Assembly: GCA_043771635.1 (NCBI GenBank)
Contig: JAYVHA010000007.1
Location: 2,233 to 66,232, forward strand
Reading direction: 5' to 3'
Length of the DNA: 64,000 bases
Origin: Candidatus Woesearchaeota archaeon
GTDB lineage: Archaea > Nanobdellota > Nanobdellia > Woesearchaeales > SKIA01
Below the pieces are notes generated by a model. It saw only the letters and a program-made list of their open reading frames with translations, had not been told where the DNA came from and did no database searches. This document shows positions 3,632 to 63,864 of this stretch, piece by piece; the first letter of the stretch is position 1; each line of letters begins with the position of its first letter. The position numbers and the translations under genes are program-made.

Positions 3632-5102
<1,471 letters not shown>

Positions 5103-24495: not shown

Positions 24496-24603
24496 ATGAG
24501 AAAAAAGGGACTACTCCGTATAAAGATGCTGAATCATACAGTCATTACTGCAGAGCAAAAGAAGCGATACTAAATCCCCATTCAATAGGGAAAAGACTTG
24601 ATA

Positions 24604-24850
24604 GGTTAACTGCTCCGGCCGGACACAAATACTTCTTGTCCCGAGCAGGGATGTGATGATAAAAAATAGAAAAACTAGTGGTTAACACAATTTTATGAAT
24701 GCTTTTCACCATAAGAAGTCAACCTCAAGCAGACTTCACGGAAAAATACGCTGGCTCAGATTAAAGTTCTGAATCGGCGAGAAAACCGTACAACATCGAC
24801 AAAGACTGACCTGAAGCAGAGTTTATATATTTCTAGACAGTTCTCAACAC
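24604..24850 (+). repeat. dispersed repeat, diverged copy D ending in TATA for gene 24851
   Basis: ggttaactgctccggccggac ... gatgtgatgataaaaaatagaaaaactagtggttaacaca ... gagtttatatatttc. Confidence 0.45.
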
Positions 24851-27955: not shown

Positions 27956-28095
27956 TTCGGAAAATTTTCGGAAAATTCTGACACAGTAAACAGAGTTTTA
28001 CTTGAGATATATCACTGTAACACACATTTTTAAGATGGTGTTCTATAGTGGATAAAGCTGTTGAAAAGAATCCTTTGCTGGGACAAAAAGTATTA

Positions 28096-28379
28096 CTGAT
28101 CCAGCCGACCGCCCGACCTGACAGGTCTCAAGTCTCAGTCTTTCGGGATATTTTTGGCAGTTGTAGGTTCGCCGTAGGCGGCACTTTCGGACGGAAGAAC
28201 AAAGCGTCAAATTCCTCACCTGTTTTTCTCAGAGCGGCCATCCCTCGAGCAAAAGTTGAGATGATATAATAGAGGAACTCCGAGTCTGTAATACAAACCC
28301 GAAAAAACACATGAAAAAACGTTATACAAATATGAGCCTCGTATAAGATTTATAAGCACCTACAGCGCAACCAAATGAG
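28096..28379 (+). repeat. dispersed intergenic repeat, copy C (conserved 5' block, variable middle, conserved 3' block with bidirectional promoters)
   Basis: 5' ctgatccagccgaccgcccgacctgacaggtctcaagtctc. 3' gagatgatataatagaggaactccgagtctgtaatacaa...gatttataag. Aligns to 38834-39116. Confidence 0.7.
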
Positions 28380-31484: not shown

Positions 31485-31590
31485 AGTCCCACCACTAGTT
31501 TCGGAAGAACGAGCCTAGATACCGAAGACCATCCGGACCAAACGGACCACTTCCGACCAAACTGGAAGATTTCCGGTAAAACGAGAAAAA

Positions 31591-31747
31591 TCTGAGAATG
31601 TATTACAACTGCTCCAGCCGGTCCCCAGGGCAAACAGGTCCTGAACCGGACGTATAAAACCCTCCTAAGCACTTCTGGGCTTTTAAAGCCGAAAATCCTT
31701 CGAATTTTCGCAGCGGGTTTAATAAGGTCGAAACGGCTCCACCCCCC
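31591..31747 (+). repeat. dispersed repeat copy E upstream of the biosynthetic operon
   Basis: tctgagaatgtattacaactgctccagccggtcc ... caggtcctgaa ... gggtttaataagg (TATA ~32 nt before ATG 31748). Confidence 0.45.
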
Positions 31748-38727: not shown

Positions 38728-38833
38728 GACAACTTGCTTCTAGCAGTGAATTAAAATGTGCCTATCCTGCAAAACGGGAAAAAACGCACTAGTGTCACGA
38801 GAAAGTAGTCAGGAGAGTCTCTGTGAATCTGAC

Positions 38834-39116
38834 CTGACGGGTTAACTGCTCCAGCCGACCCCACGACCTGGCAGGTCTCAAGTCTCCGGGAAAAGGCCAA
38901 TGGCCACTAGCTTTTGTTGCTCTTGGGGTGAGAGCAAGTCCCAGCTGTGGATTAGAATAGCTTTGAACTTCGAAACACTCAGAGTTATGGTAGGTTCGTT
39001 CATACCACCTCTAAAGGTAAGATGATATTTAGCGGGAACTCCGAGTCCGTATAACACGCGACGAAAAACGGCCTAAAAACCGTATAACATATTCGAGATT
39101 TATAAAGGATCAATTC
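38834..39116 (+). repeat. dispersed intergenic repeat, copy B
   Basis: 5' ctgacgggttaactgctccagccgaccccacgacctggcaggtctcaagtctc. 3' gtaagatgatatttagcgggaactccgagtccgtataacac...gatttataaagg. Minus strand retains a 41-codon remnant MNEPTITLSVSKFKAILIHSWDLLSPQEQQKLV.. with SD agaggtgg. Confidence 0.7.
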
Positions 39117-39726: not shown

Positions 39727-39851
39727 TTATTCGGGACTCATTTTTGATTTATATTACTTAACTGAACCCGGCAAGTTAATTACGATCGCACGGAGAACGG
39801 CTCCCGACGCATAATGAGTAAGTATTTAACTCTCAAAACGACAGGCAGAGC

Positions 39852-47106: not shown

Positions 47107-50100
47107 ATCGAATGTTCCTTGCTGTCATGTTCGTTGCATTAGCATTAGCAATTCCTTCGGCATTAGCTGATAACATCACTAATGAAACGAACAACTCAAT
47201 TCCAATACTATTACCGAACGGCACGATCAACACAACAGCCCCAGTAATTATACTCGTGCCAACAGAGAATGTAGTAGAACAGCCTGCTGTAACAATATCA
47301 GAACCAAACCCTAAGCCTGCCGATGAGCCACAAGTAATTGAGGCTCTAGAACTTGTTGTAGCTCCTACTGAACCTCGTGACGCGCCCACACGCGACCCAG
47401 CAACAGTAGACGCACCCATACCTTATTGCGGACATAAGTCATGCGCAAAGGAGATTCTGACTACTGTGCGTGTTTCTGAAACAGCGTTTGGACGGCAGGA
47501 GATACTACAGCTAGAAAAAGATCCAAATTACCCGTGTACCATCGAAGAAGGCGGATTTGTAGTATGCGAGCCAATAACTCCTCAAGGAGAAGCAGCATTA
47601 AGGGCTGCATACGACCTCTCCGAAGGAATTCCCACTACAGACTACCGCCAGCCAGTTTACGAAGGATATTCAAGCCAACTGAGTACAGGCATCGTACGCG
47701 GAGTGAGAATTGGTTCTTACAAACGATCCACGATCAACCCTACCGTCCGGCAAAGATTCGAAATTAACGCTTCCGAACCTGGCGTATTCGTCGTAGGATT
47801 CGCCTCAAACGTCTTTGTCGTGTCAGACTTTAATTACGGTACGTGCGAGAACTGCTCAATTGGCACAACACAAGTAACACTTGAAAACTACCACTCGACA
47901 GACGCAGCACAAGCGCTTTCATGGCGTTTCTCAGGAAACGGACTAGACAGCTCAGGAAACGCAAACACAGCAACATTCGGCGGAGCAGCATACGTAAACA
48001 ACACATTTGCTGATGGTTTCGCGTTTAATGATGCCAATAAACTATCAGCTCCAGATGCCGCTAGCCTTGATATTTCAAACATGACGTTGTCTTTCTGGGT
48101 TCGGTTTAAATCCCTAACAGAAAACCAAACACTGATTTACCGCTACACATCAACAAACGGGTACTTATGCGAATTCGCTAAATACGACACAACAGGAATT
48201 CAATGCTACACAAGAAACTCAACAGCAGGAGGTGCTGCATGGGTACAGACAGGAGGAGCTAGCGAGACACAAAACCCTGACTATGAAATAAACAAATGGT
48301 ACCACATAGTACTAACCTATAACCTAAGCTCAGGAAACCTAAGCATATACCAAGACGGAACACTAAAGCACTCAAAAATTGCAACAAACCACAGCATGTC
48401 GTCAACAGCTTCATTCAAATGGGGAGCGGACTACTTCGACGCGTTCAACGGAACTGTAGACGAAATAAACCTCTACAGCAGAACATTCTCAGCAACAGAA
48501 GTAACATCCCTGTACAACTCGGGCTTATACCTAGTAAACCCATCATACGGAAACTACACAAGCATGATTGACCTCGGCCAATCATCGACTGTTTCAAGTG
48601 TGTCTTGGACTGGAAGTGGAAACCTAACAATAGCAGCAAGAACCGGAGACTATGCAAAACCAGGATTAACAGATACTGGACTATTCGGGTACTGGCCACT
48701 AAACCAATCACTGCTTTGTAAGGATGCGAACAGCCGTTATAACGGAACAGCATCATCAGGAGTAATCTGTGGAAACGTATCAGGACCATTCGTGCTAGAA
48801 AACGCAACATGGTTTGACAGCGACACCGACAAAATAACTCTACCACTCGCGACAAACTTCACCAACTGGTCTGTGCAAGTATGGGTGCGAAGCGATGGCA
48901 CATGTGTCGACGGACAAAACATATTCGCAAAAGGATGGGACTACCGAATATACACAACAAGCTCTTGCGGCATAACCATAGTATCAGCGAACAGCAGTGG
49001 CTCAAACAAATCAATGTCGTCCGTATGCTCAATATCCGACGGCCGATGGCACTCACTAGCATACGTATACAACGACACAGCAAAGACCGCGTACGCGTAC
49101 TGCGACGGAGTACAAAAGTCTAGCGTGACTCAGCAAGGCACAGCAACCTCATCAACTAACTTCACAATCGGCGGAGGAACTTCCGGCTTGACCTTCAGAG
49201 GATCCGTAGCGCAAGTATCATTATGGAATAAGACACTAGCACCAGCAGACCTAGTAGCATGGAACACGTGGAGCAGCACGCTCACATCAGGAAACGACCC
49301 AGGACTAACAGACGGCAGGTATGTACAATATTCAGCAATACTGCGCACGAACGATACTCGCAATACTTCGATGCTGACTAGCGTAAGCGTAGGCACAAGC
49401 AGTTCTTGCTCACTTTCAAACGGAGGTTACAACGTAACCCTAATGAACGGCGCATCAACAGGAAGCGGATACGCAACACTAGATGGAACTGATGATAGAA
49501 TAGATACTGACCTAAATGTTAGTTCTGTACTTAATAACGGAAGCTTCACACTTGCCATGTGGGTGAAAAGTGATGTCGACAGTGGGCAGCGAGCATTCTG
49601 GAGCGCGGACAGTAGCGGAACAGATAGATTCTATTTACGACAGAGCGATATAAGCTCAAACCAAGTAGTGCTCGGCGCCAGTAGCTGGAATCCGGTGTTG
49701 ACAGGTTATGGTGCTTTGAGTAACTGGACACATTACGTCCTGATTATTAACGGAACTAGTGGCCTATTCTACCGTAACGGGTTGAACGTTGCTAACACAA
49801 CAGGAATAACAAAGAACTATCCAGGAAAATACTTACGATTCGGCGCTAACGGCGATACACTAGCAGAAACACACGACGGAAACATAGACGGGATAAACCT
49901 ATACAACCGAGCACTAACATTAACAGAAGTTAGCCAGCTGTACACAAACATAACTGTAACAACCGGTCAAATACTTAGCATAGAATTCAATACCTGCAGC
50001 GCAACAACGAGTTTAACATACGACCCTAACGGAAACATGGTTTACGACGGTACGTATACCTACGAGTATGATTCATTCAATAGGTTGACCAAAATCTGGC

Positions 50101-51218
50101 TTGGTTTAGCGAATACTACCAACGTGTCAGCGTACTTGTATGACGACGAAGGAATTAGAATCAGAAAAATAGAATACAACACCACATCAGGTGCCATTCT
50201 TTCTAGAACATATTACCCTGACGATGACTTTGTACGCGTTTACAACGCAAGCAATCAAACCACTGACGAGGTTTACTATCGTGTCGACGGAACATTGCTC
50301 GCACAAATGAAAGGGAACAACTTGACCTTTATTCATACTAACCATTTGGGAACGCCTGACCTCGTCACGAGCACAACCGGTAGCACGATCGAGACGACAA
50401 AACTCGACCCTTACGGAAACGACATAACAGGGGGGAACAGTCGCTATGTTTTTACTGGCCATGAACGTGATACAGAAACTGGGCTAGATTACATGAAGGC
50501 AAGGCACTATAGTCCAGACCTCGCGATGTTTGTACAACCGGATAGTTTACTAGAAGATATATACTCTCCGCAAAAATTGAATAGATATGCGTATGTTTCA
50601 AACAGGCCGACGATTTATACAGATCCGACCGGGCAGTACAGTTGTGATGCAACGGGAGGATGCATTAGTTTCTGTGTGGGGTTCATATGTCCAATAATGA
50701 ATGCAGTTCCAGATGAAGGAGACAATCCTGACGTAGGTTTATACAACGGCAAAAATGTTCGTTTTGCTAACCAGGAACAAAATGCCTTTATGAGTGCTGT
50801 TATTTCGTTAACAACTATGGGAGGAGTTAGATCGTTTGGATTAGCCTCTAGTACTAAAGTTACCGGCAATAATGCTGTGAATTACGCAGATCTTCCTGAG
50901 GATGTCCAAAACACCCTGGCCAAAGTCAAATCCGGAGAAAAGTTACCCTATGCCAAGGATGGAACAATATATCAAAATAGAAACGAAGCTCTTCCAAAAC
51001 AAGCCGCTAATTATTACCGCGAGTATACAGTCCAAGCAGACCCTGCAAAAGGTAGAGGGACCAATAGGTTGGTAGTTGGAAATAATGGAGAGACTTACTA
51101 CACAACAAACCATTATGGCTCATTCAAAAGGGTCACCTCTGAGCCTGACCGCACTAATTTTAATCAAGCGTATAAAATGCTACAGAGAGCAGTAAATAGA
51201 ATTGGAGGCAATAAATGA
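47103..51218 (+). CDS. secreted LamG x3 - RHS-repeat - RHS core - barnase-family RNase toxin (polymorphic toxin)
   Basis: Signal MFLAVMFVALALAIPSALA. Three ConA/LamG-like domains. YD repeats. RHS core RYVFTGHERDTETGLDYMKARHYSPDLAMFVQPDS..YVSNRPTIYTDPTGQ. C-terminus GTIYQNRNEALPKQ..YREYTVQ..GRGTNRLVV..YYTTNHYGSFKRV aligns to barnase (GDIFSNREGKLPG..WREADI..RNSDRILY..YKTTDHYQTFTKI). Confidence 0.85.
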   Translation: MNRMFLAVMFVALALAIPSALADNITNETNNSIPILLPNGTINTTAPVIILVPTENVVEQPAVTISEPNPKPADEPQVIEALELVVAPTEPRDAPTRDPATVDAPIPYCGHKSCAKEILTTVRVSETAFGRQEILQLEKDPNYPCTIEEGGFVVCEPITPQGEAALRAAYDLSEGIPTTDYRQPVYEGYSSQLSTGIVRGVRIGSYKRSTINPTVRQRFEINASEPGVFVVGFASNVFVVSDFNYGTCENCSIGTTQVTLENYHSTDAAQALSWRFSGNGLDSSGNANTATFGGAAYVNNTFADGFAFNDANKLSAPDAASLDISNMTLSFWVRFKSLTENQTLIYRYTSTNGYLCEFAKYDTTGIQCYTRNSTAGGAAWVQTGGASETQNPDYEINKWYHIVLTYNLSSGNLSIYQDGTLKHSKIATNHSMSSTASFKWGADYFDAFNGTVDEINLYSRTFSATEVTSLYNSGLYLVNPSYGNYTSMIDLGQSSTVSSVSWTGSGNLTIAARTGDYAKPGLTDTGLFGYWPLNQSLLCKDANSRYNGTASSGVICGNVSGPFVLENATWFDSDTDKITLPLATNFTNWSVQVWVRSDGTCVDGQNIFAKGWDYRIYTTSSCGITIVSANSSGSNKSMSSVCSISDGRWHSLAYVYNDTAKTAYAYCDGVQKSSVTQQGTATSSTNFTIGGGTSGLTFRGSVAQVSLWNKTLAPADLVAWNTWSSTLTSGNDPGLTDGRYVQYSAILRTNDTRNTSMLTSVSVGTSSSCSLSNGGYNVTLMNGASTGSGYATLDGTDDRIDTDLNVSSVLNNGSFTLAMWVKSDVDSGQRAFWSADSSGTDRFYLRQSDISSNQVVLGASSWNPVLTGYGALSNWTHYVLIINGTSGLFYRNGLNVANTTGITKNYPGKYLRFGANGDTLAETHDGNIDGINLYNRALTLTEVSQLYTNITVTTGQILSIEFNTCSATTSLTYDPNGNMVYDGTYTYEYDSFNRLTKIWLGLANTTNVSAYLYDDEGIRIRKIEYNTTSGAILSRTYYPDDDFVRVYNASNQTTDEVYYRVDGTLLAQMKGNNLTFIHTNHLGTPDLVTSTTGSTIETTKLDPYGNDITGGNSRYVFTGHERDTETGLDYMKARHYSPDLAMFVQPDSLLEDIYSPQKLNRYAYVSNRPTIYTDPTGQYSCDATGGCISFCVGFICPIMNAVPDEGDNPDVGLYNGKNVRFANQEQNAFMSAVISLTTMGGVRSFGLASSTKVTGNNAVNYADLPEDVQNTLAKVKSGEKLPYAKDGTIYQNRNEALPKQAANYYREYTVQADPAKGRGTNRLVVGNNGETYYTTNHYGSFKRVTSEPDRTNFNQAYKMLQRAVNRIGGNK
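48495..50530 (+). repeat. ~2-kb direct repeat copy 1 (inside main RHS gene), partner at 51609-53650
   Basis: acagaagtaacatccctgtacaactcgggcttatacctagtaaacccatcatacgg.. recurs at 51609 with ~95% identity. Identity decays after the conserved RHS core. Confidence 0.85.
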
Positions 51219-51541
51219 CAAAGGAAAAAACACTGACTAAGAATTTGAACGCAGACATCCTTGTTAATTTGTCCAATGTGGCAAGTAAAAAAAAAGTGTT
51301 CGAGATATTTAGTTCAGAACTATTTTTTCCAGAGTATTTCGGACACAACTGGGATGCGCTATATGACTGCTTAACAGACCTTGTTTGGCTTCCAAAAGTT
51401 AAAACAACTATTACAGTCTGTCTTCCAAAAAGGCTTTCTAACAATGATAAACTCGTTTTAGTAAGATTGCTTCAGGATGTAGACGCCTACTGGGAGCAGG
51501 AAAAGAGACATATTAGGGTCAAAATTGGTAATAACAATTAG
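51215..51541 (+). CDS. barstar-family immunity protein
   Basis: ELFFPEYFGHNWDALYDCLTDLVWLP versus barstar [26 protein letters not shown]. ATGA overlap with the toxin stop. Confidence 0.8.
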   Translation: MTKEKTLTKNLNADILVNLSNVASKKKVFEIFSSELFFPEYFGHNWDALYDCLTDLVWLPKVKTTITVCLPKRLSNNDKLVLVRLLQDVDAYWEQEKRHIRVKIGNNN

Positions 51542-54269
51542 GTCATTAAATTCTGTATTAGAAGCCTGCATAGAGGGAGTTGCACAGTACAATCGCACTA
51601 GATCTATGACAGAAGTAACATCCCTATACAACTCAGGCTTATACCTAGTAAACCCATCATACGGAAACTACACAAGCATGATAGACCTCGGCCAATCATC
51701 GACTGTTTCAAGTGTGTCTTGGACAGGCAGCGGAAACCTAACAATAGCAGCAAGAACCGGAGACTACGCAAAACCAGGATTAACCGATACAGGACTATTC
51801 GGGTACTGGCCACTAAACCAAACACTGCTTTGTAAGGATGCGAACAGCCGTTATAACGGCACAAATTCAAGTGGGGTCATATACGGCAATGTTACAGGCC
51901 CATTTGTTCTAGAGAACGCAACGTGGTTTGACAGTGACACTGACAAAATAACTCTACCACTCGCGACAAACTTCACAAACTGGTCTGTGCAAGTATGGGT
52001 AAGAAGCGATGGCACATGTGTCGACGGACAAAACATATTCGCAAAAGGATGGGACTACAGAATATACACAACAGGTTCGTGTGGCATAACCATGGTATCA
52101 GCAAACAGTAGCGGATCAAACAAAACAATGGCATCAGTGTGCTCAATTTCAGACGGCCGATGGCACTCACTTGCATACGTATACAACGACACAGCAAAGA
52201 CCGCGTACGCGTACTGCGACGGAGTACAAAAGTCTAGCGTTACTCAGCAAGGCACAGCAACCTCATCAACTAACTTCACAATCGGCGGAGGAACATCCGG
52301 ACTAACCTTCAGAGGATCAGTTGCGCAAGTATCGTTATGGAACAAGACACTAGCACCGGCAGATCTAGTAGCATGGAACACGTGGAGCAGCACACTAACA
52401 TCAGGAAACGACCCTTTACTTTCTGACGGAAGATATGTGCAATACAGCGCAATACTGCGCACGAACGACACTCGCAATACTTCGATGCTGACCAGCGTAA
52501 GCGTAGGAACAAGCAGCTCCTGCTCACTATCAAACGGAGGATACAACGTAACCCTAATGAACGGCGCATCAACAGGAAACGGCTACGCAACACTAGACGG
52601 CGTTGACGACCGCATATCAACAGACATGAATGTTAGTTCCGCTCTTAGCAACGGAAGCTTCACGATATCTATGTGGGCAAAAAGCGACGCAGACGCTGGC
52701 CAACGAACGTTCTGGAGCGCAGACACAAACGGCTCCGATAGATTCTACTTCCGTCAATCAGACGTAAGTTTAAACCAAGTTGTACTGGGCATGAGCAGTT
52801 GGAATACAGTATTGACAGGCTACGGGGCTTTGAGTAACTGGACGCACTATGTGCTAGTAATTAGCGGCACGAGCGGAACGTTGTATCGCAATGGCGTAAA
52901 TATCGCAAACATGAGCGGCATAACAAAGAACTATCCTGGAAAATACTTACAACTAGGAGCAAACGCTGAATGGTACGCAGAAACGATGGACGGGAACATG
53001 GATCGAGTTGCAATATACACTCGCGCATTAAACAACACAGAAGTAGCTCAACTATACGCAAATACGAGCGTGAGCAGCGGACGCATATTCAACTTAGATT
53101 TCGACCCTTGCAACGGCAGCACTAGCCTAACATACGATGCCAACGGAAACATGGTTTACGACGGTACGTTCACTTACGAATATGATTCATTCAATAGATT
53201 GACCAAAATCTGGCTTGGATTAGCAAATACTACCAACGTGTCGGCGCACTTGTATGACGACGAAGGAATTAGAATCAGAAAAATAGAATACAACACCACA
53301 TCAGGCGCCGTTCTTTCTAGAACATACTACCCAGACGATGACTTTGTACGCGTTTACAACGCGAGCAATCAAACCACAGACGAAGTTTACTATCGTGTCG
53401 ACGGAACATTACTTGCTCAAATGAGAGGCAACAACCTAACGTACATCCATCCAAACCATCTAGGTACACCTGATTTGGTGACAAACAGTTCTGGAGGAAC
53501 CGTAGAGGTCACAAAACTGGACCCCTACGGAAATGACATAACTGGTGGAAATGGCAGATATGCTTTCACTGGCCATGAACGAGACACAGAAACTGGGCTA
53601 GATTACATGAAGGCAAGGCACTATAGCGCAGATCTTGCGATGTTCGTGCAGCCAGATTCGATTAAAGAGAATGTGTACGATCCACAAACACTAAATCCAT
53701 ACGGCTACGTTAGAAATAATCCGACTAACAAAGTTGACCCGACCGGCATGTTTAGCTCTCAACTCCTCGGACTAGGAGTCTTTATGGCAAGTGCTAATAC
53801 TGGTGCTGCGCTATACGGAGGTCCGTTCGGAATTGGTTTTGCAGCAATAGAAGGCCCAATAACCATTTCAGTTATTGCGACTTCATTCATTATTGATGAA
53901 GATGAGACTGATGAGTATGCTCGTGCTTTTGCTGCAGGTTCGATTTCGGCAGAATTCTTGGTCACTGCCAAGGACATATATAATACGGGATCTGTTTCAG
54001 GAGTGCCATTCACAGGACCAGCAGGCCAAGCGTTATACGGCACATATGGCAATAATAGACGGCAGACCTTCCTGAAAGAAGCACAAGCACGCCAGGACTC
54101 TCAACGAGACAAATCTATCGAGAGGGAGTACAAAGGCAAATCCATGAGTACTCCTAGTGGCAAGGAGGCAAAAATAGATAAAGTGCTGCGAGGTAATAGT
54201 GGTAAGATCTGGGTTATTAGTGAACCCTATAAAAAAAATTCTAATGGCAGTAGTAGGGACAAGAAATGA
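51525..54269 (+). CDS. orphan RHS C-terminal cassette (LamG x2 - YD repeats - RHS core - alternative C-terminal toxin CT2); may lack an authentic start
   Basis: From nt 51609 it is ~95% identical to 48495 onward of the main gene. RHS core RYAFTGHERDTETGLDYMKARHYSADLAMFVQPDS..NPTNKVDPTGMF. Divergent tail with Gly-rich hydrophobic segment GLGVFMASANTGAALYGGPFGIGFAAIEGPITISVIATSFII. Confidence 0.6.
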   Translation: MVITIRSLNSVLEACIEGVAQYNRTRSMTEVTSLYNSGLYLVNPSYGNYTSMIDLGQSSTVSSVSWTGSGNLTIAARTGDYAKPGLTDTGLFGYWPLNQTLLCKDANSRYNGTNSSGVIYGNVTGPFVLENATWFDSDTDKITLPLATNFTNWSVQVWVRSDGTCVDGQNIFAKGWDYRIYTTGSCGITMVSANSSGSNKTMASVCSISDGRWHSLAYVYNDTAKTAYAYCDGVQKSSVTQQGTATSSTNFTIGGGTSGLTFRGSVAQVSLWNKTLAPADLVAWNTWSSTLTSGNDPLLSDGRYVQYSAILRTNDTRNTSMLTSVSVGTSSSCSLSNGGYNVTLMNGASTGNGYATLDGVDDRISTDMNVSSALSNGSFTISMWAKSDADAGQRTFWSADTNGSDRFYFRQSDVSLNQVVLGMSSWNTVLTGYGALSNWTHYVLVISGTSGTLYRNGVNIANMSGITKNYPGKYLQLGANAEWYAETMDGNMDRVAIYTRALNNTEVAQLYANTSVSSGRIFNLDFDPCNGSTSLTYDANGNMVYDGTFTYEYDSFNRLTKIWLGLANTTNVSAHLYDDEGIRIRKIEYNTTSGAVLSRTYYPDDDFVRVYNASNQTTDEVYYRVDGTLLAQMRGNNLTYIHPNHLGTPDLVTNSSGGTVEVTKLDPYGNDITGGNGRYAFTGHERDTETGLDYMKARHYSADLAMFVQPDSIKENVYDPQTLNPYGYVRNNPTNKVDPTGMFSSQLLGLGVFMASANTGAALYGGPFGIGFAAIEGPITISVIATSFIIDEDETDEYARAFAAGSISAEFLVTAKDIYNTGSVSGVPFTGPAGQALYGTYGNNRRQTFLKEAQARQDSQRDKSIEREYKGKSMSTPSGKEAKIDKVLRGNSGKIWVISEPYKKNSNGSSRDKK
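51609..53650 (+). repeat. ~2-kb direct repeat copy 2 (orphan RHS cassette)
   Basis: See copy 1. Confidence 0.85.
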
Positions 54270-55002: not shown

Positions 55003-55188
55003 ATGTTATGTATGGTTAAAACGCGTCTTGTGGGTTTTCGCGTGAGTGAGGAGCAGTATTTTTTGCTTCGTTTGTGGGCGCGACAGGATGGCTTGGGGGT
55101 TTCTAGCTACGTCAGAATGCGTTTTTTTAGGAAGGAGCGGGCTGCGGGCAAGGAAATGGCCTCTGAGGGCGAGAAAAATGGATATTGA
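55003..55188 (+). CDS. ribbon-helix-helix (CopG/Arc-like) DNA-binding protein
   Basis: TRLVGFRVSEEQYFLLRLWARQDGLGVSSYVR resembles the RHH beta-strand plus two helices. Confidence 0.45.
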   Translation: MLCMVKTRLVGFRVSEEQYFLLRLWARQDGLGVSSYVRMRFFRKERAAGKEMASEGEKNGY

Positions 55189-55351
55189 GTTGCTTCGTGG
55201 TGAGCGGCGTTGCTTTTACTGCACAAATACTGTATGGAACGCCATGTGCGCTTACACCGAGGATTGTATGTCCCGGTCTGAATTCATCCGTGTTGCGATA
55301 GAGGAGAAGCTTCTTCGTGATTCGGAGAATTTACGGGAAAAACGCAAATGA
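55178..55351 (+). CDS. ribbon-helix-helix (CopG-like) DNA-binding protein
   Basis: MSRSEFIRVAIEEKLLRD RHH motif. Start taken at internal ATG 55178 of ORF 55046-55351. Overlaps the previous RHH gene by 11 nt. Confidence 0.45.
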   Translation: MDIELLRGERRCFYCTNTVWNAMCAYTEDCMSRSEFIRVAIEEKLLRDSENLREKRK

Positions 55352-55477: not shown

Positions 55478-56269
55478 TCATCTAAATTGAGAGTTAGTAC
55501 GTAGCTGCTTACTCCGCCTTCTAATAGTTACTTCGACGACTCCAGTGTAGCGTGTAAACAGTCTCTGTGCGCGGTATTCGCCTGTTGTTTGCATCGCGAC
55601 GTACAGGCTTGTTGCTGCGAGCGTACTTGGCTTAAGGCCGTTACTGGCATTCATTCCTGCGTATTGTATTGCTAGAGTTACTGTGTTGCTTGGCAGCCGT
55701 AGTCTTGTTGCGAACCGCGGTATGAGGTCTATTGCTTCTATCGTGCCCGTTCTTATTTTTAGAGCTCTTTGAATGTGTTTTGCAGCCTTAAGCAATTCAG
55801 CTTTAGGTATTTCTGTGTGCGCAGTAATTTCTAGCGCTGTTTGCGGCGTTCCGGCGTCGATGCATGCAATGTATACTGCTGCGTATGCAAATGCCTGATT
55901 GCTTCTGCCGATTGTTATTTCTTTATTGGTTACTTCGAGGAACATTCTTTTTGCTTCTGCCGCTACGGTTTTAGGTGCTTTAATTCTTGATACTAGAAGG
56001 TCTATTTCGCTGCATGTTGCTCGGAAGTTTTTTTGTTTGGTTGTTAATAGCCATGATTCTGTTAGGTGTCTTCCGTTTGTGTTGAAGGTGCCTGCTTGCG
56101 CTAAGGCTGGATGTGATGCGTGGCTGCCTTCGGATAACAAGGTACTTTGTTCTATTCTGTTGTCTTCAAGCACTAACCCGCAGCCTAGGCACACTAGCTC
56201 TCCTTGGGATTCTCTAAATCTCTTTTCCGCGCATTCAGAGCACCGCATTAGAATCTTCGCCTCCTTCAT
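55478..56269 (-). CDS. tfb: transcription initiation factor TFB (TFIIB) homologue, short form
   Basis: N-terminal Zn ribbon CSECAEKRF..GELVCLGCGLVLED. Cyclin-fold region NQAFAYAAVYIACIDAGTPQTALEIT. Confidence 0.7.
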   Translation of the reverse strand: MKEAKILMRCSECAEKRFRESQGELVCLGCGLVLEDNRIEQSTLLSEGSHASHPALAQAGTFNTNGRHLTESWLLTTKQKNFRATCSEIDLLVSRIKAPKTVAAEAKRMFLEVTNKEITIGRSNQAFAYAAVYIACIDAGTPQTALEITAHTEIPKAELLKAAKHIQRALKIRTGTIEAIDLIPRFATRLRLPSNTVTLAIQYAGMNASNGLKPSTLAATSLYVAMQTTGEYRAQRLFTRYTGVVEVTIRRRSKQLRTNSQFR

Positions 56270-56507
56270 CGGTAAAGTATAGTAGTACTGGCATTGTCTT
56301 CTGTTCGGAGAGTTTTTCGAGCCTGCTTAGCACTTGTTCTTTGCTTAGGCATAGCTCCATAACGTATTCTACTTTTGAGCTGCTTGAGCTGAATAGCTGT
56401 CGCACGGGTAATTTTAGATCTATTCTTCTTCGGCTATCGTTGTAGAGTACTTTCCCTGTTATGGTTACGATTTTGTTTGTTGTGCCGAATAGTATTTTTT
56501 CTCCCAT
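56235..56507 (-). CDS. hypothetical protein (90 aa)
   Basis: ORF lying between the ATPase and TFB genes in the same orientation. Confidence 0.3.
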   Translation of the reverse strand: MGEKILFGTTNKIVTITGKVLYNDSRRRIDLKLPVRQLFSSSSSKVEYVMELCLSKEQVLSRLEKLSEQKTMPVLLYFTDEGGEDSNAVL

Positions 56508-56617: not shown

Positions 56618-59617
56618 TCACTCTTTTACGGCGTGCACAGGCCGTGCGCCACCCCTAATTCTTGCAGGAGATCTATGGGAGAACAGATTAGAAAGTAGGC
56701 CTGGTACTTCGTTGCGTACGAGTATTGGTCGCTCGAGGGTACGCTCGTAGGCTCGTTTGAACTCTGCGTCTGTCAATACTATGTGTACTTCGTCGTACTG
56801 CTCGTCTAGGTCAGCGAATTTTTGTTGTATGTTTCTTCTGTTCTTTTTGTATTGAGATCCTGTTTCTACTTCTATCGCTATATTTCGTCCTCTTGTGTCC
56901 TTGAATACCACGTCTGCGTCGCTTACAATGTTTACTTCTACTTCTTGCGTGTGTTGCTTGATGTGTTCTTTGATGTTTTGTACTAGGAACGTGTGCGCTA
57001 TTGTCTCTACTTTGTTTGTTTTTACCCAGCATTCTTCTTGCCTTGGCTTTCCTATAGGCACGAACATTCCTTTCACGTATCCGTTGTGTACTAGGTAGTT
57101 TTTGTCTGCGAAGCTCATTCCTGTGCCGTATATGAGTCCTTTCTCTGTGTTTACGGTTATGTCTACTTCTTTTTTTTCATCTGGTTTTGTTATTGTCTTT
57201 GTTTTTTCGTTCGGGTTTGTTGTAATTAATTCGTGTTCTTTCTCTGAGGCTATTACGCTTAGTTCCTGGTGGTCGTTGTCGAGTATGAGAATTCCTTTTC
57301 CTTGTGTTGCTGTGAGTAGGTAGTTCTTTTCTGGTGTGCTAAGGTGGAATGTTCGCACTACGCTGTCTATTATGGCTGGTTTTTGTCTTAGGAGAAATGT
57401 GTAGCTGCTGTTCGCTAGTACCGCGTGTCCTGCGTTGCTGTTCACTAGGTCTGCCACGTCTTGTGTTATTAGGAGTAGTCCCATGTTGAATTTTCTACAG
57501 GTTTTTACTATTTCGAATAGGTATCCTGCTTCTTCTGTGTGGCTTAGAAGGCTCCATGCTTCGTCCACGACAAGCATTTTCTTGCCTGGACGGGTCTTCA
57601 TGTTCATGTATGCGTAGTCAAGAATTAGGAACATTACTATTGGCTTGACTTGTTTTGGCATGTCGCCTATGTTGAAGCATACGAAATTGTTTTCGTAGTT
57701 GATGTTTGTTTGTCTGTTAAGAAAGTTGTATACTCCGTCAGTGTACATGTAGAGTCTGTTGATGAGTGCTCTGTACGTTATTTTCTCTGATTGCGCGGCT
57801 TTCCTGTCCATTTCGACGAGTGTTTTGTATAAGTCTTTGAGAATGGGTGGTTTGTTCTTTTTTCCGCGGTCAGCTGTTATGCCTTTTCTTGCGTACGTCT
57901 CGTTTACTGCCTTGTCGAGTATGCTCTTTTGAACTTCGCTTAGCTCCCCGAACATTATTCTGAACAAGTCCATTAGTGCCAGTCGTTTCTCGATATAGTC
58001 GTGTCCCATTAAATCCAAGGGGTTAATCATCGTCTTGCTGGTGCGACTTATGCTGATCTGCTCTCCGTTGCATGCTTGCACGAGCCCCGTATACTCTCCT
58101 TGGGGGTCGATGACGGTTACGCTTGTTCCATTGAGTATTTGGCGGCTTACAAGGAGCTTTGTGAAGTAGCTTTTCCCTGCGCCACTCGTTGCCAATACTA
58201 TTCCGTTTGCGTTGTTTAGGTTGAATATGTCTTTGATGTACGGCACGTTATTTTTGTTGAGACCTAGAAGGGTTCCGCTTAACTCCATTGTTAGGAACGG
58301 GCTTGTGAATGGGAAGAACGCGCTTAAGGCGCCGGTTGTAACGTTTCTTCGCTCTCCCAGGTAGTTTTTGCCGAACGGCATCATTGACTTGTATGCCGCA
58401 AGCTGCCGAAAGAGCGGCGCTTTCGGGATAATCATTATGCTGTGCAGCTCTGCTTCGACTTTTCTTGTGAGCAGGTTAAGCTCTTCTTTCGTGTTGGCTT
58501 TGCAGGCTATGAGAAGGCTTACGTTGAATAGTTTCTCTTCGCCCTTTTGAAGGGCTTCAAGGACTTTGAGTGTGTCTCGGTACTTAATTTCAAGGCTCGG
58601 GTTAATACTCTTTCTCTGCTCTTCAGAGTACAGGTCGGCTCTTTGCTTTTGGAGTTCTTGGTTTAGAATAAGCATGGTTGTTTCTATGCTGAAAGGCTCT
58701 ACGTGAATGCTTATGTCATAGTCTTCGTTACTGCTAATTATTTTATCTAGGAACCCGCTTTCCACATTTCTAGGATACCCTGTCGCGACCACTACGCGCA
58801 CAAGCTTCCCGTCAACGTCCAGGTAATCAGCGTGATCCTTGATTCTTCCCGGCGCTACAAGGGAATGCACTCCTTTTACGCTGCTAGGGTGCTCTGACGG
58901 TTTAGTATTGTAGGATTGCGCCAAGAACTCTAGCAACGCATTCTGCCCTAGCCGCTCTACTTGCAAGCCCATGCTTTCAAGCCTATCTTGACATAGCTTA
59001 GATTGAATACTGAGATCTGCTCTTTTTGGTATTATGACGAAAAACTCTCTGTTTCTTTGCGTTGCTGTTTTGGCATTTATGTACATTGAAAACTCTTCGA
59101 ACCGTTGTTTGTCTTTAGTTCGCTCCTCTAAGCTCGCGAGGTATTTGTCAAGGTTCAGAGTTTGCGTGTTTACTAGTATTTGTACTGGAAAGTCAAGGCT
59201 GTTCAGGAACTTTTGGAAACCAGCTATAATGCCTTCCTTCTCCGCATCAGTTTTTATGCCGAAGTTGATAGTGGCAACTCTTAGAACAGCGACGCTATCC
59301 TCAGCGATTATGGTGTCGTTTACGACTTCTTTAATGGGAAAAGCCTGGCTCATGTGCTTTGTACCGAGAAGTACTTCTCTGTGGCGTATGTAACCTATTG
59401 CGTTCCTTACCCATGACCACATGTTAAAGAAAATAAACAGTACGCCAAGCACTATCGGCACAACTGCCACACCCATCTTAACGTACAGCGATAGATTACT
59501 TGCGAGCGCGGCAAGTACGAAGAACCCGAAGAATGCAGCCCAGCCAAGCTGCGTAAACGTCAGGCCAAAAACTATTCGCTCTTTGTGCTGAAGCTGCTGC
59601 GGAATTTCGTAACTCAT
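56618..59617 (-). CDS. VirB4/TrbE/CedB-like (HerA-FtsK superfamily) DNA-transfer ATPase with N-terminal TM segments and C-terminal PD-(D/E)xK-like nuclease-like domain
   Basis: N-terminal TM helices. Walker A IVLATSGAGKSYF. Walker B KKMLVVDEAWSLL. ..LLLITQDVADL. C-terminal ~200 aa with DADVVFKD..RNIAIEVETGSQYKK (D..E.K-like). Confidence 0.75.
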   Translation of the reverse strand: MSYEIPQQLQHKERIVFGLTFTQLGWAAFFGFFVLAALASNLSLYVKMGVAVVPIVLGVLFIFFNMWSWVRNAIGYIRHREVLLGTKHMSQAFPIKEVVNDTIIAEDSVAVLRVATINFGIKTDAEKEGIIAGFQKFLNSLDFPVQILVNTQTLNLDKYLASLEERTKDKQRFEEFSMYINAKTATQRNREFFVIIPKRADLSIQSKLCQDRLESMGLQVERLGQNALLEFLAQSYNTKPSEHPSSVKGVHSLVAPGRIKDHADYLDVDGKLVRVVVATGYPRNVESGFLDKIISSNEDYDISIHVEPFSIETTMLILNQELQKQRADLYSEEQRKSINPSLEIKYRDTLKVLEALQKGEEKLFNVSLLIACKANTKEELNLLTRKVEAELHSIMIIPKAPLFRQLAAYKSMMPFGKNYLGERRNVTTGALSAFFPFTSPFLTMELSGTLLGLNKNNVPYIKDIFNLNNANGIVLATSGAGKSYFTKLLVSRQILNGTSVTVIDPQGEYTGLVQACNGEQISISRTSKTMINPLDLMGHDYIEKRLALMDLFRIMFGELSEVQKSILDKAVNETYARKGITADRGKKNKPPILKDLYKTLVEMDRKAAQSEKITYRALINRLYMYTDGVYNFLNRQTNINYENNFVCFNIGDMPKQVKPIVMFLILDYAYMNMKTRPGKKMLVVDEAWSLLSHTEEAGYLFEIVKTCRKFNMGLLLITQDVADLVNSNAGHAVLANSSYTFLLRQKPAIIDSVVRTFHLSTPEKNYLLTATQGKGILILDNDHQELSVIASEKEHELITTNPNEKTKTITKPDEKKEVDITVNTEKGLIYGTGMSFADKNYLVHNGYVKGMFVPIGKPRQEECWVKTNKVETIAHTFLVQNIKEHIKQHTQEVEVNIVSDADVVFKDTRGRNIAIEVETGSQYKKNRRNIQQKFADLDEQYDEVHIVLTDAEFKRAYERTLERPILVRNEVPGLLSNLFSHRSPARIRGGARPVHAVKE

Positions 59618-61638
59618 TAGATTACTCCGCCGAGATACTTCGCAGCTTGAGCGACGCTTCCTCCCATGTCGCCTAGAGCCGACTTAGTGATGATGTGCTT
59701 GCCGAGAACCAAGAATAGCAAGTTAACGAGCAGAAAGCACGTTATCATGATAACTATCTTGAAATTTTGAAACAATTCAACTTGTACGAGCATACTGCTT
59801 GCAAGAATGATAATGGAAGCTAGAAACGTACTGAAAATTGCCATGCCAAGCAAGTTAAGAATGAGCTTACCATAACTGCGGAGCGGAGGCACGAAGTAGC
59901 AGAAAATACCAACAGGAGCAAATATGACACCCGCAGCAACCACCAAGTACCGAAGCGTAAGAACCACGATCGTGGCGAGCAAAACCACGGCGTAGGTGAG
60001 AACGAGCAAGAACTCAAGAGCAACATTCACCACGTTATCTGCAGTTAACTGAAAGAACGCAGGATCAACTTGCACTAGCACCGTACTTGCGAGAGCGGAA
60101 CCGAGCTCAAGCATAAGACCGTACAAGTAAAAGCTAGCTTGAACGAAAATAATTAGCAAAATAGCATTCTTTAGCGACTCCTTAGCAAGCTCGCGCTTAA
60201 CTACATCATGACCACTCGTCATAAACTGATAACCAGCGTACAAAAACAAGAAACCATAAAGAATACTCAGCAACGCTACAATTACTTGCCACACGCCTTG
60301 AAACAATGCGATACTTGGCGGATTCTCGATGAGACTGCGCGTAAAGTCAAGCAAAGGCTGCAAAGGAGCATTCAAAGCGCCAATCAGGAACTCGAAGAAC
60401 TTCTGGGGAATACACGTCGCAAGATTGGTTATACCACAATCATCCGCTCGGACACCAGGAAGAGCTGCAATAGCTGCCAGAACGACGCCGAACAGCGGCG
60501 GGAACTTCTTACGAGCAAATCGTATCAAAACAAGTATCAAGAGAATGAGAAGAAGCAGCTTGAAACCGAACTTAAGATCGGACGAGAATCTAGTTTGTTT
60601 GAACGGCGTGAAAATAGCACCAGTAATATTTCTCGCGCAAGACAAAGTCTTAGTGTCGAAGAAGTCGCTAAGAACGAGGTTGCAAGCGCTCGAGTCCTTA
60701 ACCGTTACCGACCCATTACTGTAAAACAGGTTCGTAGGATACTCTTGACGCTGCCTCGTGGCTTGCAATGCAATAAAGTCGTACGGTGCCTTTGTGAAAT
60801 TAGCAGAGTAAACGAACTCACCAACAAGTAGATGGCTTTGGTTAAAATCTAAACGGACATACGTCAGATTGTCTTTGGTAAGCTCTCCGCCAACACTATC
60901 TGCGTATTGCGTGGTGAGAATGAAAGATGCGTTAGGTGAATGATTGTATGCCGCGACAGTTTGGTAATCCTGAAGAGTCAGGTTATCTAATTTGTACGTA
61001 GTGAGACTGAATGAACAACTATAGCAAGTGCTTTCGCACGCTAACCCGCAACACCGGGCAGTTGTACGGTACGTATCAACTTTAGTTGTAGCTGACAATT
61101 CTAAATTTGCTCGTATAACTGAATCTACAGGCACGGAGAAATTACTTATTTTATTTGAACCAACCGTTTCACCGTTTAGTACAATACTATAATTCTCTTG
61201 CGTATCCTCTAGCGAATATAGTATTTTGCAAATGCTACCTGTGACGCGGTTTGAATTTCTATAATCTGGCGGCAGTTCAATGGAGTAACCGTACTCGCTC
61301 CGCGCAGTTACTATTGCGGGAACATACGTGCGCCCCTCAAATAACATACTCGGCTGAATGGAGAGCAGTACAAGCCAAGCGTCTTTAATAACACCCTCAG
61401 AAGTATTTTGATAACCTTCTGGGGGACCGGTAACGATGATTCCATCATTGTACGACGCAACAAACTCGTGATCTGGCGAGCTAGTGTTCGTATAGATAAG
61501 GTTAGCAATCGCGCCAGGCGATGTTACGCTCAGCGCAAGACACGCCTCGTAACTGGGCGAAGCGAATAGCGAACAATCAAAAGCGTAAACTCCACCAACA
61601 AGCGACGACAAAAATAGAAGAAAAATAAATGATTTCAT
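59617..61638 (-). CDS. VirB6/TrbL/CedA-like polytopic membrane protein with N-terminal glycosylated Cys-rich extracellular domain
   Basis: Signal MKSFIFLLFLSSLVGGVYA. ~340-aa sequon-rich ectodomain with CCGLACESTCYSC. 6-7 TM helices in the C-terminal half. TAATG overlap with the ATPase start. Confidence 0.6.
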   Translation of the reverse strand: MKSFIFLLFLSSLVGGVYAFDCSLFASPSYEACLALSVTSPGAIANLIYTNTSSPDHEFVASYNDGIIVTGPPEGYQNTSEGVIKDAWLVLLSIQPSMLFEGRTYVPAIVTARSEYGYSIELPPDYRNSNRVTGSICKILYSLEDTQENYSIVLNGETVGSNKISNFSVPVDSVIRANLELSATTKVDTYRTTARCCGLACESTCYSCSFSLTTYKLDNLTLQDYQTVAAYNHSPNASFILTTQYADSVGGELTKDNLTYVRLDFNQSHLLVGEFVYSANFTKAPYDFIALQATRQRQEYPTNLFYSNGSVTVKDSSACNLVLSDFFDTKTLSCARNITGAIFTPFKQTRFSSDLKFGFKLLLLILLILVLIRFARKKFPPLFGVVLAAIAALPGVRADDCGITNLATCIPQKFFEFLIGALNAPLQPLLDFTRSLIENPPSIALFQGVWQVIVALLSILYGFLFLYAGYQFMTSGHDVVKRELAKESLKNAILLIIFVQASFYLYGLMLELGSALASTVLVQVDPAFFQLTADNVVNVALEFLLVLTYAVVLLATIVVLTLRYLVVAAGVIFAPVGIFCYFVPPLRSYGKLILNLLGMAIFSTFLASIIILASSMLVQVELFQNFKIVIMITCFLLVNLLFLVLGKHIITKSALGDMGGSVAQAAKYLGGVI

Positions 61639-61964
61639 GCGACCAAGTACTGGATAACATAAGGAGCTATCCAGATCACCCCTAGGCCAACAATAACATA
61701 GCCAGCCATCTTCTTAGCCTGAGAACGCGCAGCCTGATCATCACCACTAGTGATAAAAGTAACACCAGCAAAGACCAAGAACAAAACCGCAATTACGGAA
61801 GCAGCGTACTTAATGAAATTATAGACCTTCATAACAGGCGACAAAATCAAATCGAAAGTAGCCTGATCCTGCGCACTAATAACCTGATTATAATCAACAG
61901 CAAAAGCAGCAGGCAACAAAACAAATAATACAGCCAAAATACCATACAATAACTTCTTCATCAT
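61635..61964 (-). CDS. VirB2/TrbC-like pilin candidate (signal peptide + two TM helices)
   Basis: 109 aa. MMKKLLYGILAVLFVLLPAAFA signal, then two hydrophobic helices. Strong SD AAGGAGGTGG before ATG. ATGA overlap with the downstream gene. Confidence 0.5.
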   Translation of the reverse strand: MMKKLLYGILAVLFVLLPAAFAVDYNQVISAQDQATFDLILSPVMKVYNFIKYAASVIAVLFLVFAGVTFITSGDDQAARSQAKKMAGYVIVGLGVIWIAPYVIQYLVA

Positions 61965-62426
61965 TCCACCTCCTTAAGCTCCATATGAGCTATGGCATCC
62001 AAAAGCCGCAAATATGCCTCGACAGAACCATACTTCCAAGTCAGAAAAGCAGCACAAGAAAAGCAAAAAGCAACATCAGAACCAGCAAGCCGTCCACCAC
62101 ACAAAGCACATTCAGCTACAAACACCATACAAACCTAAGAATTGCGATGACTAAAGTAAGGAACTCAGAGAATGTATAACAAAGCCGGCACTTATCTAGA
62201 GCTAACTCGCTGCCAACGGCGACTGCATTTTTTACATGTATAATCTGTTCGAAAATCCGTTACAGCAACAGGTCTAGATTCTGTTCGAACAACAGACCAG
62301 TTAGAATGCCGCGACTATGTTCAAATCATAACCATTCTAACTCGGAGAATGTAATACGCATGACTGTAACATACCTGTCGCATACCCGACAAGCTTTAAT
62401 TCGCATAACACTTTTAGGTTAATGTC

Positions 62427-62882
62427 ATGCTGTCCACACTCGAAAAAGAAGTTAACGCAGAACTAAGCAGAACCGATGAGAACTTTCGGCAGTTGGACAA
62501 CAAGATATCGCAAATAACAGCAGTAAACACGGGTTTAATCGTATTATTTACGAGCATAATCAAGCTTAACGAGTTGGAGGGTCTTGCTACCGTCGGCTTC
62601 TCGATAGGAATCTTGGGGTATATAGCGTCTTTGATAGTGTTGATTGTAGCTTACACTCCACGATCGTCCGAGGCAATAGACACTTTCAAACTGCTTGCGA
62701 AATTTGAAAAAAAAGGATTCAAGAGCGAAGATGAACTTAGAAAAGCCATTTTGGGTGGCCTCGCAGAGTCCACCAGTCAAACAAAAAAGCACAGCAGTAA
62801 GAAAAGCAAGCTGCTAACTTGGGGCATTGCTATATGCCTTTCGTCCACAATCTTGCTTAGCATCATACTTACGGTAAAATAA
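62427..62882 (+). CDS. hypothetical membrane protein (151 aa)
   Basis: Two hydrophobic helices. Divergent from the transfer operon. Confidence 0.35.
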   Translation: MLSTLEKEVNAELSRTDENFRQLDNKISQITAVNTGLIVLFTSIIKLNELEGLATVGFSIGILGYIASLIVLIVAYTPRSSEAIDTFKLLAKFEKKGFKSEDELRKAILGGLAESTSQTKKHSSKKSKLLTWGIAICLSSTILLSIILTVK

Positions 62883-63095: not shown

Positions 63096-63809
63096 CTACA
63101 CATCTATACGTCTTTGAGCTGCCTTGACGAATTCGGGGCTGAGTTCGCACCCTAGGAAGTCTCTTCCGCTGATTTTGGCCGCTACAGCTGTACTACCAAT
63201 CCCTATAAACGGGTCAAGAACCACATCGCCCTCTTGGCTACTTGTCTCAATAAGTCTCTTGAGAACGCTCAATGGTTTTTGAGTGGGGTGAAATGCCATT
63301 CCGTTTTCTTGCTTTAATCTTTCTCTGCCTTGAAGCGCCGGTGTAATGAAAATGTTTTTCATGGCGGGTTGACTTTCGAAATTGAATGTTATTTTGTTGA
63401 GTTTTGTTTTGTCGTTTATTGCGTATATGATGTATTCGTTTGCGAATACCCAGTTCGTTTTACTTAATCGAGGCGGAGGGTTCGTCTTACTCCATACGAG
63501 AAGGTTTCTGAAGAACCAGTTTTCTTGGAATATTTTCATATATACTGGGATTTGTTCTGTGCTGCAGAACACGTAGATTTGCCCGTTTGGTTTTAAGACT
63601 CGTTTGATTTCGCGCATTACTGGCACCGGATCAAAGTTGTAGTCCCACTCACCAAAATCTTTACGGATTACTCGTCCCTGAAATAATATGTTGGTTTTGC
63701 GCGATACGTTGTATGGTGGATCCGTCACGACGAGATCTACACAATTGTCAGGAAGTGTTTTCAAGTACTCCAGACAATCCATGCAAGCGATCGTGTTAAG
63801 TGCGAACAT
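63096..63809 (-). CDS. beta-class N6-adenine/N4-cytosine DNA methyltransferase
   Basis: Motif IV DLVVTDPPYNV precedes motif I VVLDPFIGIGSTAVAA (beta-class order). Confidence 0.8.
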   Translation of the reverse strand: MFALNTIACMDCLEYLKTLPDNCVDLVVTDPPYNVSRKTNILFQGRVIRKDFGEWDYNFDPVPVMREIKRVLKPNGQIYVFCSTEQIPVYMKIFQENWFFRNLLVWSKTNPPPRLSKTNWVFANEYIIYAINDKTKLNKITFNFESQPAMKNIFITPALQGRERLKQENGMAFHPTQKPLSVLKRLIETSSQEGDVVLDPFIGIGSTAVAAKISGRDFLGCELSPEFVKAAQRRIDV

Positions 63810-63841
63810 AGAAGCATAAAGTTCGCCTTAACCTATATCAA

Positions 63842-63864
63842 GAACTCAGAGAATGTATAACACT
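63842..63864 (-). promoter_or_regulatory. conserved promoter/operator motif upstream of methyltransferase gene (GTTATACA TATA + ACTCnGAGT palindrome)
   Basis: Minus strand reads gtgTTATACAttctCTGAGTTcttgatatagg..ATG. 46 nt from the TATA end to the ATG, identical spacing to repeat copies B and C. Related copies at 62161-62182 and 62338-62360. Confidence 0.45.

Follow-up and report, generated by a model that had tools for sequence, protein, structure and literature searches.

The DNA analysed here is a 64-kb stretch (positions 2,233 to 66,232 of contig JAYVHA010000007.1, in the following called the window) of a Candidatus Woesearchaeota archaeon, and the subject of this study is a short homologue of the archaeal transcription factor B (TFB) that is encoded in this window within a putative integrative conjugative element (ICE). 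The window is archaeal, with a 23S rRNA gene, a tRNA-Ala gene and a 16S rRNA gene within positions 1-5102. The open reading frame (ORF) at 55478..56269 on the minus strand encodes 263 amino acids (aa), and its product is a TFB/TFIIB homologue. Pfam identified the TFIIB Zn ribbon (PF08271, E 6.7e-8) and the TFIIB repeat PF00382, the latter in two stretches (E 5.4e-21). The score against NCBIfam PRK00423, the NCBI model for housekeeping TFBs, was 118.6 bits and thus below the curated cut-off of 384. In an AlphaFold model based on 18 aligned sequences (pLDDT 79), the ribbon is formed by three strands and each of the two cyclin folds by five helices, and residues 36-73 are disordered. With Foldseek, the modelled core could be superimposed on P. 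woesei TFB in complex with TBP and DNA (1d3u_B) with a root-mean-square deviation of 2.0 Å over 193 columns, and on human TFIIB structures with 1.6-1.9 Å (1c9b and 1vol, TBP-DNA complexes, with 1.6-1.8 Å; 1c9b_A, 1.6 Å over 179 columns). Homologues start with the sequence MRC(S/P)EC, which other gene callers also use as the start and which corresponds to M8 of the ORF (ATG at 56248), and a GGAGG is located 11 nt upstream of this ATG. Therefore, the product probably consists of 256 aa (55478-56248). A previous reading of this DNA, made from the sequence alone, had described a TFB of 263 aa with Zn ribbon and cyclin-fold region; the ORF and both types of domain could be confirmed, whereas the length has probably to be shortened.

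The same sequence-only reading had placed the gene inside a transfer module, and this is indeed what the neighbouring genes on the minus strand indicate. Directly upstream of the TFB gene lies the gene for a basic orphan protein of 90 aa, named small90 here (56235..56507), with an overlap of 14 nt between its stop and the TFB start. It is preceded by the genes for a VirB4/TraC-like ATPase of 999 aa (56618..59617; PF19044, E 3.6e-26), a 673-aa membrane protein that is conserved in the module and is possibly a VirB6-type channel component (59617..61638), a pilin of the TrbC/VirB2 type of type IV secretion systems (T4SS) (61635..61964; PF18895, E 3.8e-12) and a Cys-rich, Zn-ribbon-like protein of 55 aa (61961..62128), which is the first gene of the pilin operon and is found at the same position in related loci. 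The N-terminus of VirB4 is a fused PrgI/VirB3-like membrane part, and its C-terminus is an extension of ~200 aa for which no Pfam or PDB match was obtained. A D...ExK-like pattern was seen by eye in this extension, but a nuclease assignment was not retained as neither Pfam nor PDB supported it. VirB4 and a VirB2-type pilin, the combination by which a conjugative T4SS of the MPF-FATA type is recognized, are both present. Among the genes scanned in the window and the contig flank, no VirD4 coupling protein and no relaxase were detected, the only related finding being a NikA-like ribbon-helix-helix (RHH) protein; DNA transfer by the element is therefore putative. This RHH protein (61 aa) and a CopG-like one (56 aa, from 55181) are encoded by two genes on the plus strand (55003..55351), convergent with the TFB gene.

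The right border of the element lies beyond the window and was read from the source contig (ENA ERZ27315199, k141_1533156, 83 kb). There, a tyrosine integrase of 439 aa (window-equivalent ~65262-66581), 39-41% identical over ~400 aa to Phage_integrase-family proteins, directly adjoins an intact tRNA-Glu(UUC) gene (window-equivalent ~66802-66876). A copy of the tRNA-Glu 3' end with ~60 nt of its downstream sequence was found at 38791..38885 on the minus strand and represents an att-type repeat. Because of this repeat at 38.8 kb and the tRNA-Glu with integrase at window-equivalent ~66.9 kb, the TFB gene is assigned to an ICE of ~28 kb that is inserted at tRNA-Glu, in agreement with the earlier proposal that the island is a true mobile element. 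In at least 12 further loci, a homologous integrase is encoded close to the short TFB, and in four loci the integrase adjoins a tRNA gene, namely Glu in the window, Gln in L011 and L022, and Ser in L048.

To place the TFB among its relatives, protein collections were searched. In a word-indexed search, eight relatives of 249-273 aa with 36-68% identity were retrieved, followed by canonical TFBs of Woesearchaeota, Nanoarchaeota and Micrarchaeota of ~300-320 aa with at most 30% identity. An exhaustive profile search of 1.84 billion protein representatives resulted in ~35 clusters (50% identity) with full-length, single-stretch matches of 246-280 aa among ~10,000 TFB-like representatives, and 16 full-length loci of this type were found among 185,579 species genomes. 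By their sequences, the short TFBs form a distinct clade, which is found in metagenome-assembled genomes (MAGs) of Woesearchaeota and Nanoarchaeota. Identity within the ICE-borne short clade is 31-68%. Canonical TFBs of Woesearchaeota and Nanoarchaeota were observed to be unusually uniform, with 77-99% identity across the best 120 clusters (90% identity). In the viral contig collection, no relative was found.

The short TFBs were aligned with canonical DPANN TFBs, and their two ends proved to be well conserved. The ribbon cysteines C10, C13, C27 and C30 are invariant in both clades. In the C-terminal helix-turn-helix (HTH) domain, represented in the window by GVVEVTIRRRSK, the segment GV(I/V)EVTIR is invariant in the short clade and aligns with canonical GVTEVTIRNRY. 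The clade keeps an HTH of the type that reads the TFB recognition element (BRE), for which DNA binding is predicted. Compared to canonical GVTEVTIRNRYKEL, the recognition helix carries the clade substitutions T>I, N>K and Y>S (in motif form GVT>GVI, RN>RK and RY>RS) around its conserved V and R. The segment between ribbon and cyclin core is remodelled. The B-reader helix EWRxF and the loop RTGAP are absent in all short-clade members aligned and present in all canonical DPANN TFBs, and the B-linker (GLxTxI ... LRKWQxR) is mostly missing, with a single Trp (W73) that aligns; where B-reader and B-linker are located in P. furiosus TFB1, and how they act in promoter opening, has been described (PMC13502027). 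Short TFBs have 87-92 residues between the fourth Cys and the cyclin 1 GR motif, compared to 124 in canonical TFBs, and the linker is thus 32-37 residues shorter. In its place a segment AG[TS]x4-5G[RK]IxKxxW is conserved. Since A52, G53, G59, W66, T70 and K73 are invariant within the clade, the remaining short linker is not degenerate. The protein encoded at 55478..56248 can therefore be described as a TFB with a Zn ribbon, a remodelled short linker, two cyclin repeats and a C-terminal HTH.

Genomic linkage of the short TFBs was determined in loci obtained by scanning the 185,579 species genomes (18 loci) and JGI metagenomes (60 loci); ~45 of these carry a short-clade TFB, and 25 with a canonical TFB were used as controls. 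The titled records of the module are DPANN-type MAGs or evidently mislabelled: L010, L013, L016, L017, L019, L021, L023 and L025 are titled 'uncultured Methanosarcinales' or 'Bacteroidota', probably as a result of automated mislabelling or mis-binning. By tblastn, VirB4 was found within 10 kb of the short TFB in ~24 of the 27 loci with enough flank (it was absent in L017, L031 and L036) and in none of the control loci. The claim that the gene is a divergent TFB paralogue is thus in line both with its sub-threshold score against the housekeeping model and with the association of its clade with VirB4 modules.

The linkage with small90 was even tighter. Of the 45 loci with 250 nt or more of upstream sequence, 44 encode a small90 homologue of 81-91 aa immediately upstream of the short TFB, the single exception (L054) being a rearranged fragment, whereas none of the 25 canonical TFBs is preceded by it (tblastn). 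The two reading frames mostly overlap across loci. The small90 protein, with the sequence pattern GKVFYNDRRRRIDLKKPIRDLF...YxMELCLS...PVLLYF (GKVxYNDRRRRIDLKxPxRxLF...YxMELCLS...PVLLYF for the window gene), is more highly conserved than the TFB. This conserved co-translation suggests that both proteins build a complex. No Pfam, NCBIfam or PDB sequence match was found for small90, its AlphaFold model was poor (pLDDT 54), and Foldseek gave no match below E=1. An origin of small90 as a B-reader/B-linker that had been split off was dismissed on the basis of sequence, since hhalign against canonical TFBs gave a probability of 0.3%.

A conserved promoter motif of the island, written as GTTATACA..ACTCnGAGT, had been put forward in the sequence-only reading as candidate cognate promoter of the TFB. 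The literal pattern, searched as GTTATACA(N0-30)ACTCNGAGT, gave 0 matches and was dropped in favour of a same-strand 22-mer; ACTCnGAGT turned out to be the opposite-strand reading of copies in a dispersed repeat. The 22-mer TGTTATACATTCTCTGAGTTC is present exactly twice in the island, at 62160-62181 and 63841-63862 on the minus strand. Upstream regions of pilin operons from loci whose proteins are 35-60% identical share the element TGTAWTACRTTCTCCGA(G/C)(A/T)T, and the consensus of the motif is TGTAWTACRTTCTCCGAGATYC with the universal core TCCGAS.T. Using a position weight matrix (PWM) built from eight pilin-operon upstream sites, six matches were obtained in the window, all on the minus strand, compared to 0.6 expected from shuffles. 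In short-TFB loci 32 matches were found in 503 kb, 24 of which were outside the training set, versus one match in 330 kb of canonical-TFB loci.

Besides the two exact copies, the window contains four degenerate ones, and all six are located as follows. The first, TGTTATACATTCTCTGAGTTCC at 62160..62181 (-), ends 31 nt before the ATG of the first pilin operon gene. The copies at 63841..63862 (-) and, at the left end of the ICE, at 39035..39056 (-) end 31 nt before the ATG of an N6/N4 DNA methyltransferase gene (63096-63809, -) and 31 nt before an ORF of 41 aa (38878-39003), respectively. A second high-scoring copy, CGTATTACATTCTCCGAGTTAG at 62337..62358 (-), is located in the same intergenic region as the first, 177 nt upstream of it and without an ORF at +31; it may drive a short non-coding transcript or represent a duplicated promoter. 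Rfam gave no match in this intergenic region (62.1-62.4 kb). The copies at 28274..28295 (-), beside an older tRNA-Glu fragment (28077-28135), and at 31586..31607 (-) are part of the dispersed repeat.

Across loci, the distance between the end of the motif and the start codon is 31 nt in 14 sites and 30 nt in two, and genes with such a fixed-distance site are the first one of the pilin operon, virB4 and the methylase gene, in addition to the left-end small ORF and the integrase leader. When 16 sites were aligned on the start codon, the motif was found at -53..-32, an A/T-rich TATA-like box at ~-28..-22 and a conserved A(G/A)CC at -15..-12. Sub-clades with another distal half (AGTCCCCT..., AGACACCTCACA..., or A/T-rich) retain the TCCGAS.T core before the pilin operon and virB4. 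Thus the motif is real, spaced at a fixed distance from start codons, shared with distant elements and located upstream of island genes as had been anticipated, but not in the form in which it was originally written. In host genes of the window, TATA-like boxes are spaced from the ATG in the same way, with upstream sequences unrelated to the motif. The TAWTAC inside the motif was considered as TATA box and rejected, as the downstream A/T box matches the distance between host TATA boxes and ATG. In archaea, the TATA box is centred ~26 nt upstream of the site where transcription starts (TSS). Combining this rule with the distance of the TATA-like box to the ATG, it is concluded that the ICE transcripts are probably leaderless, with the TSS predicted from this geometry, and that the TCCGAS.T core would occupy the BRE position, abutting the TATA-like box.

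The explanation that is favoured here, with moderate confidence, is that the gene product serves an ICE as alternative transcription initiation factor B, with an ICE-specific regulon. It builds on the observed domain architecture with its deletion, the gene linkage, the ICE borders and the conservation and geometry of the motif; binding of the motif by the short TFB, its complex with small90 and activation as the direction of regulation are predicted from these. The small90-TFB cassette itself has no ICE motif but a strong GGGGGT/GGAGGT Shine-Dalgarno site, and the cassette of the window has a purine-rich BRE/TATA of ordinary appearance in front of it. Therefore, the cassette would be transcribed by the host housekeeping TFB or by read-through from virB4, which fits a regulatory cascade. 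The short TFB, probably in complex with small90, would then bind TBP at ICE promoters via its cyclin core, while its HTH would read the ICE-specific TCCGAS.T that replaces the normal BRE directly upstream of the TATA box. Its canonical Zn ribbon would recruit the host RNA polymerase (RNAP), and the leaderless first genes of the pilin operon, virB4, the methylase and the integrase would be switched on. As the B-reader and most of the B-linker are missing, promoter opening and start-site placement must use something else, which might be TFE, the AG[TS]x4-5G[RK]IxKxxW linker segment, small90 or the AGCC at -15..-12. In a more far-reaching version, which we consider unlikely, the short TFB and small90 would form a two-subunit, element-specific initiation factor in which small90 supplies the role of B-reader and B-linker in trans. 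[quoted passage not shown] In this case the ICE would have a promoter code of its own (TCCGAS.T-TATA-AGCC, leaderless), orthogonal and sigma-factor-like, that is not used by the host TFB.

Several observations weigh against an alternative initiation factor. An intact B-reader and linker, as in a standard factor, had been set as a check in the sequence-only reading, and EWRxF, RTGAP and LRKWQxR are absent. The 22-nt motif reaches to -53, farther upstream than known TFB contacts. No covariation was detected between HTH variants and core-motif variants, and a canonical tfb was not found in the 64-kb window or the fetched flanks. Furthermore, the 5' half GTAWTAC, and in some copies CTCSGAG, is dyad-symmetric, which suits a dimeric regulator of the RHH type better than the asymmetric HTH of a TFB. 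This partly palindromic nature would agree with a role of the motif as operator for a different regulator of the ICE, which could be an RHH protein or small90 alone. In this case the short TFB would be non-selective and would supplement or boost initiation at ICE promoters, or have an unrelated role. RHH genes beside the TFB gene in the window and some other loci provide candidates for motif binding, and the 5' half of the motif varies among sub-clades while TFB and small90 stay conserved. However, RHH homologues were found in few loci only by tblastn, whereas TFB and small90 are universal; many motif copies (CTCCGACAT) are non-palindromic, and the universal core is found exactly at the place of the BRE, abutting the TATA-like box. 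An operator for another regulator is therefore regarded as somewhat unlikely.

The missing reader and linker can also be read in another way. Mutations in these elements disrupt promoter opening in model systems (PMC13502027), and the short TFB could thus be an initiation-defective competitor at TBP-promoter complexes or at the RNAP dock, which holds ICE genes in a poised or silent state until a signal is received, or dampens host transcription during transfer. The strong conservation of the shortened linker in the clade points instead to a retained function in the polymerase cleft and not to decay, the naturally reader- and linker-divergent TFB2 still initiates (PMC13502027), and the conserved co-translation with small90 suggests a built complex, so that a competitor appears quite improbable. 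That the short TFB is simply the housekeeping TFB of the organism, located near a secretion system by chance, would agree with the lack of a second tfb in the window and the fetched flanks. Yet the gene is part of an element that has an integrase, tRNA-Glu and an att repeat at its borders, it scores below the cut-off of the housekeeping model, and its clade is rare and diverse whereas canonical Woesearchaeota TFBs are uniform in the best 120 clusters. Because of the integrated element, the score, the rarity of the clade and the uniformity of canonical TFBs, a housekeeping role is very unlikely.

Additional features were observed in and around the element. The 41-aa ORF at 38878-39003 (-), MNEPTITLSVSKFKAILIHS..., is located at the ICE end opposite the integrase and has a homologue in L030 at ~11071; its position next to att makes it a candidate that could encode a recombination directionality factor. 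Degenerate copies of the tRNA-Glu 3' end and its downstream sequence were found at 23873-23931, 24595-24621, 28077-28135 and 31607-31640, and genes for a glycosyltransferase, a radical-SAM protein and a SAM synthetase are located between these repeats. These direct repeats, a family to which 38827-38885 also belongs, point to repeated integrations or to decayed islands that have accumulated next to a single tRNA gene, and the older remnants are found to the left of the ICE. The cargo of the ICE includes three giant RHS/YD-shell/Laminin_G proteins (42046-54269, +), one of which has a barnase-type ribonuclease at its end, with a barstar gene behind it at 51215-51541; an internal duplication of ~3.1 kb was found in this region (48495-50199 versus 51609-53313, 80-90% identical). 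Defence-type cargo, consisting of an OLD-family ATPase/TOPRIM nuclease and an RNase T-like exonuclease, is encoded at 39157-41603, and a further protein of this kind, with a PycTM domain, at 62427-62882, upstream of the pilin operon. The 23S rRNA gene contains a group I catalytic intron at 797-1121 (-) (Rfam RF00028, 55 bits).

TFIIB homologues of mobile elements have been described before. They are reported to be present in all thaumarchaeal ICEs, mostly in an operon with ParB, a coupling described as specific to these ICEs (PMC6563490), and near type IV pilus or secretion loci in other archaea, and it was suggested that they change promoter specificity (PMC6563490, PMC5797428, PMC4858521). 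The idea that ICE-encoded TFIIB homologues could shift promoter specificity is thus already in the literature (PMC5797428, PMC6563490). With the thaumarchaeal homologues (Krupovic et al. 2019, PMC6563490; Abby et al. 2018, PMC5797428), the short TFB shares that it is a divergent paralogue in an ICE which is integrated at a tRNA gene and encodes a VirB4 ATPase as well as a VirB2-like pilin. It differs in its lineage, DPANN-type MAGs, and in its coupled gene, which is small90 (81-91 aa) and not ParB; no ParB domain was found among the neighbour genes of the window TFB. No VirD4 was seen next to the TFB module, and a candidate cognate promoter could be identified here, whereas the accessible text of PMC6563490 and PMC5797428 mentions none for the thaumarchaeal homologues.

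Phage and mobile-element alternative sigma factors are comparable in that an element-borne specificity subunit redirects the host polymerase to promoters with a distinct upstream sequence. This is a functional analogy only: bacterial sigma factors have no homology to the short TFB, and the archaeal system works via TBP/TFB. Two other divergent TFBs can be compared to the case studied here: P. furiosus TFB2 is a chromosomal, stress-linked paralogue, and Sulfolobus TFB3 acts as an activator alongside TFB1. TFB2 has a divergent reader and linker and is active, but weak in promoter opening and rescued by TFE (PMC13502027). The short TFB differs from it by its dedicated partner protein, its mobile-element context and its putative special BRE, none of which is given for TFB2 in PMC13502027. 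TFB3 of Sulfolobus/Saccharolobus is a truncated paralogue without B-finger and HTH that activates the genes for Ups pili and the Ced DNA importer (PMC6101591, PMC6101594). A shortened TFB without B-finger that is tied to DNA-transfer machinery is common to both systems, but TFB3 is without the HTH and most of the C-terminal core, whereas the short TFB keeps both cyclin repeats and the HTH and should therefore in principle be able to bind TBP-DNA alone. Full-text literature searches retrieved nothing on a short TFB clade of DPANN archaea, on the small protein coupled to it or on the promoter motif. The remodelled N-terminal linker, the apparently obligate small partner and the identifiable candidate regulon thus seem to be new in the short clade.

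Archaea use one basal promoter code. TFIIB homologues of archaeal ICEs have been noted earlier, in the accessible text of the respective publications without a link to target promoters, and the case described here provides a protein pair and a promoter architecture that are both defined, the latter by three conserved elements with fixed spacing, as well as ~45 natural variants. With these, the retargeting of archaeal RNA polymerase by an element-encoded TFB becomes directly testable in vitro, and the short TFB system represents a natural experiment on initiation without B-reader and B-linker. It also shows that ICE-like elements which integrate at tRNA genes and carry T4SS genes are present in DPANN-type archaea, the cell-cell biology of which is poorly understood, and, judged from its promoters and its factor, the element in this archaeon probably runs its own transcription programme.

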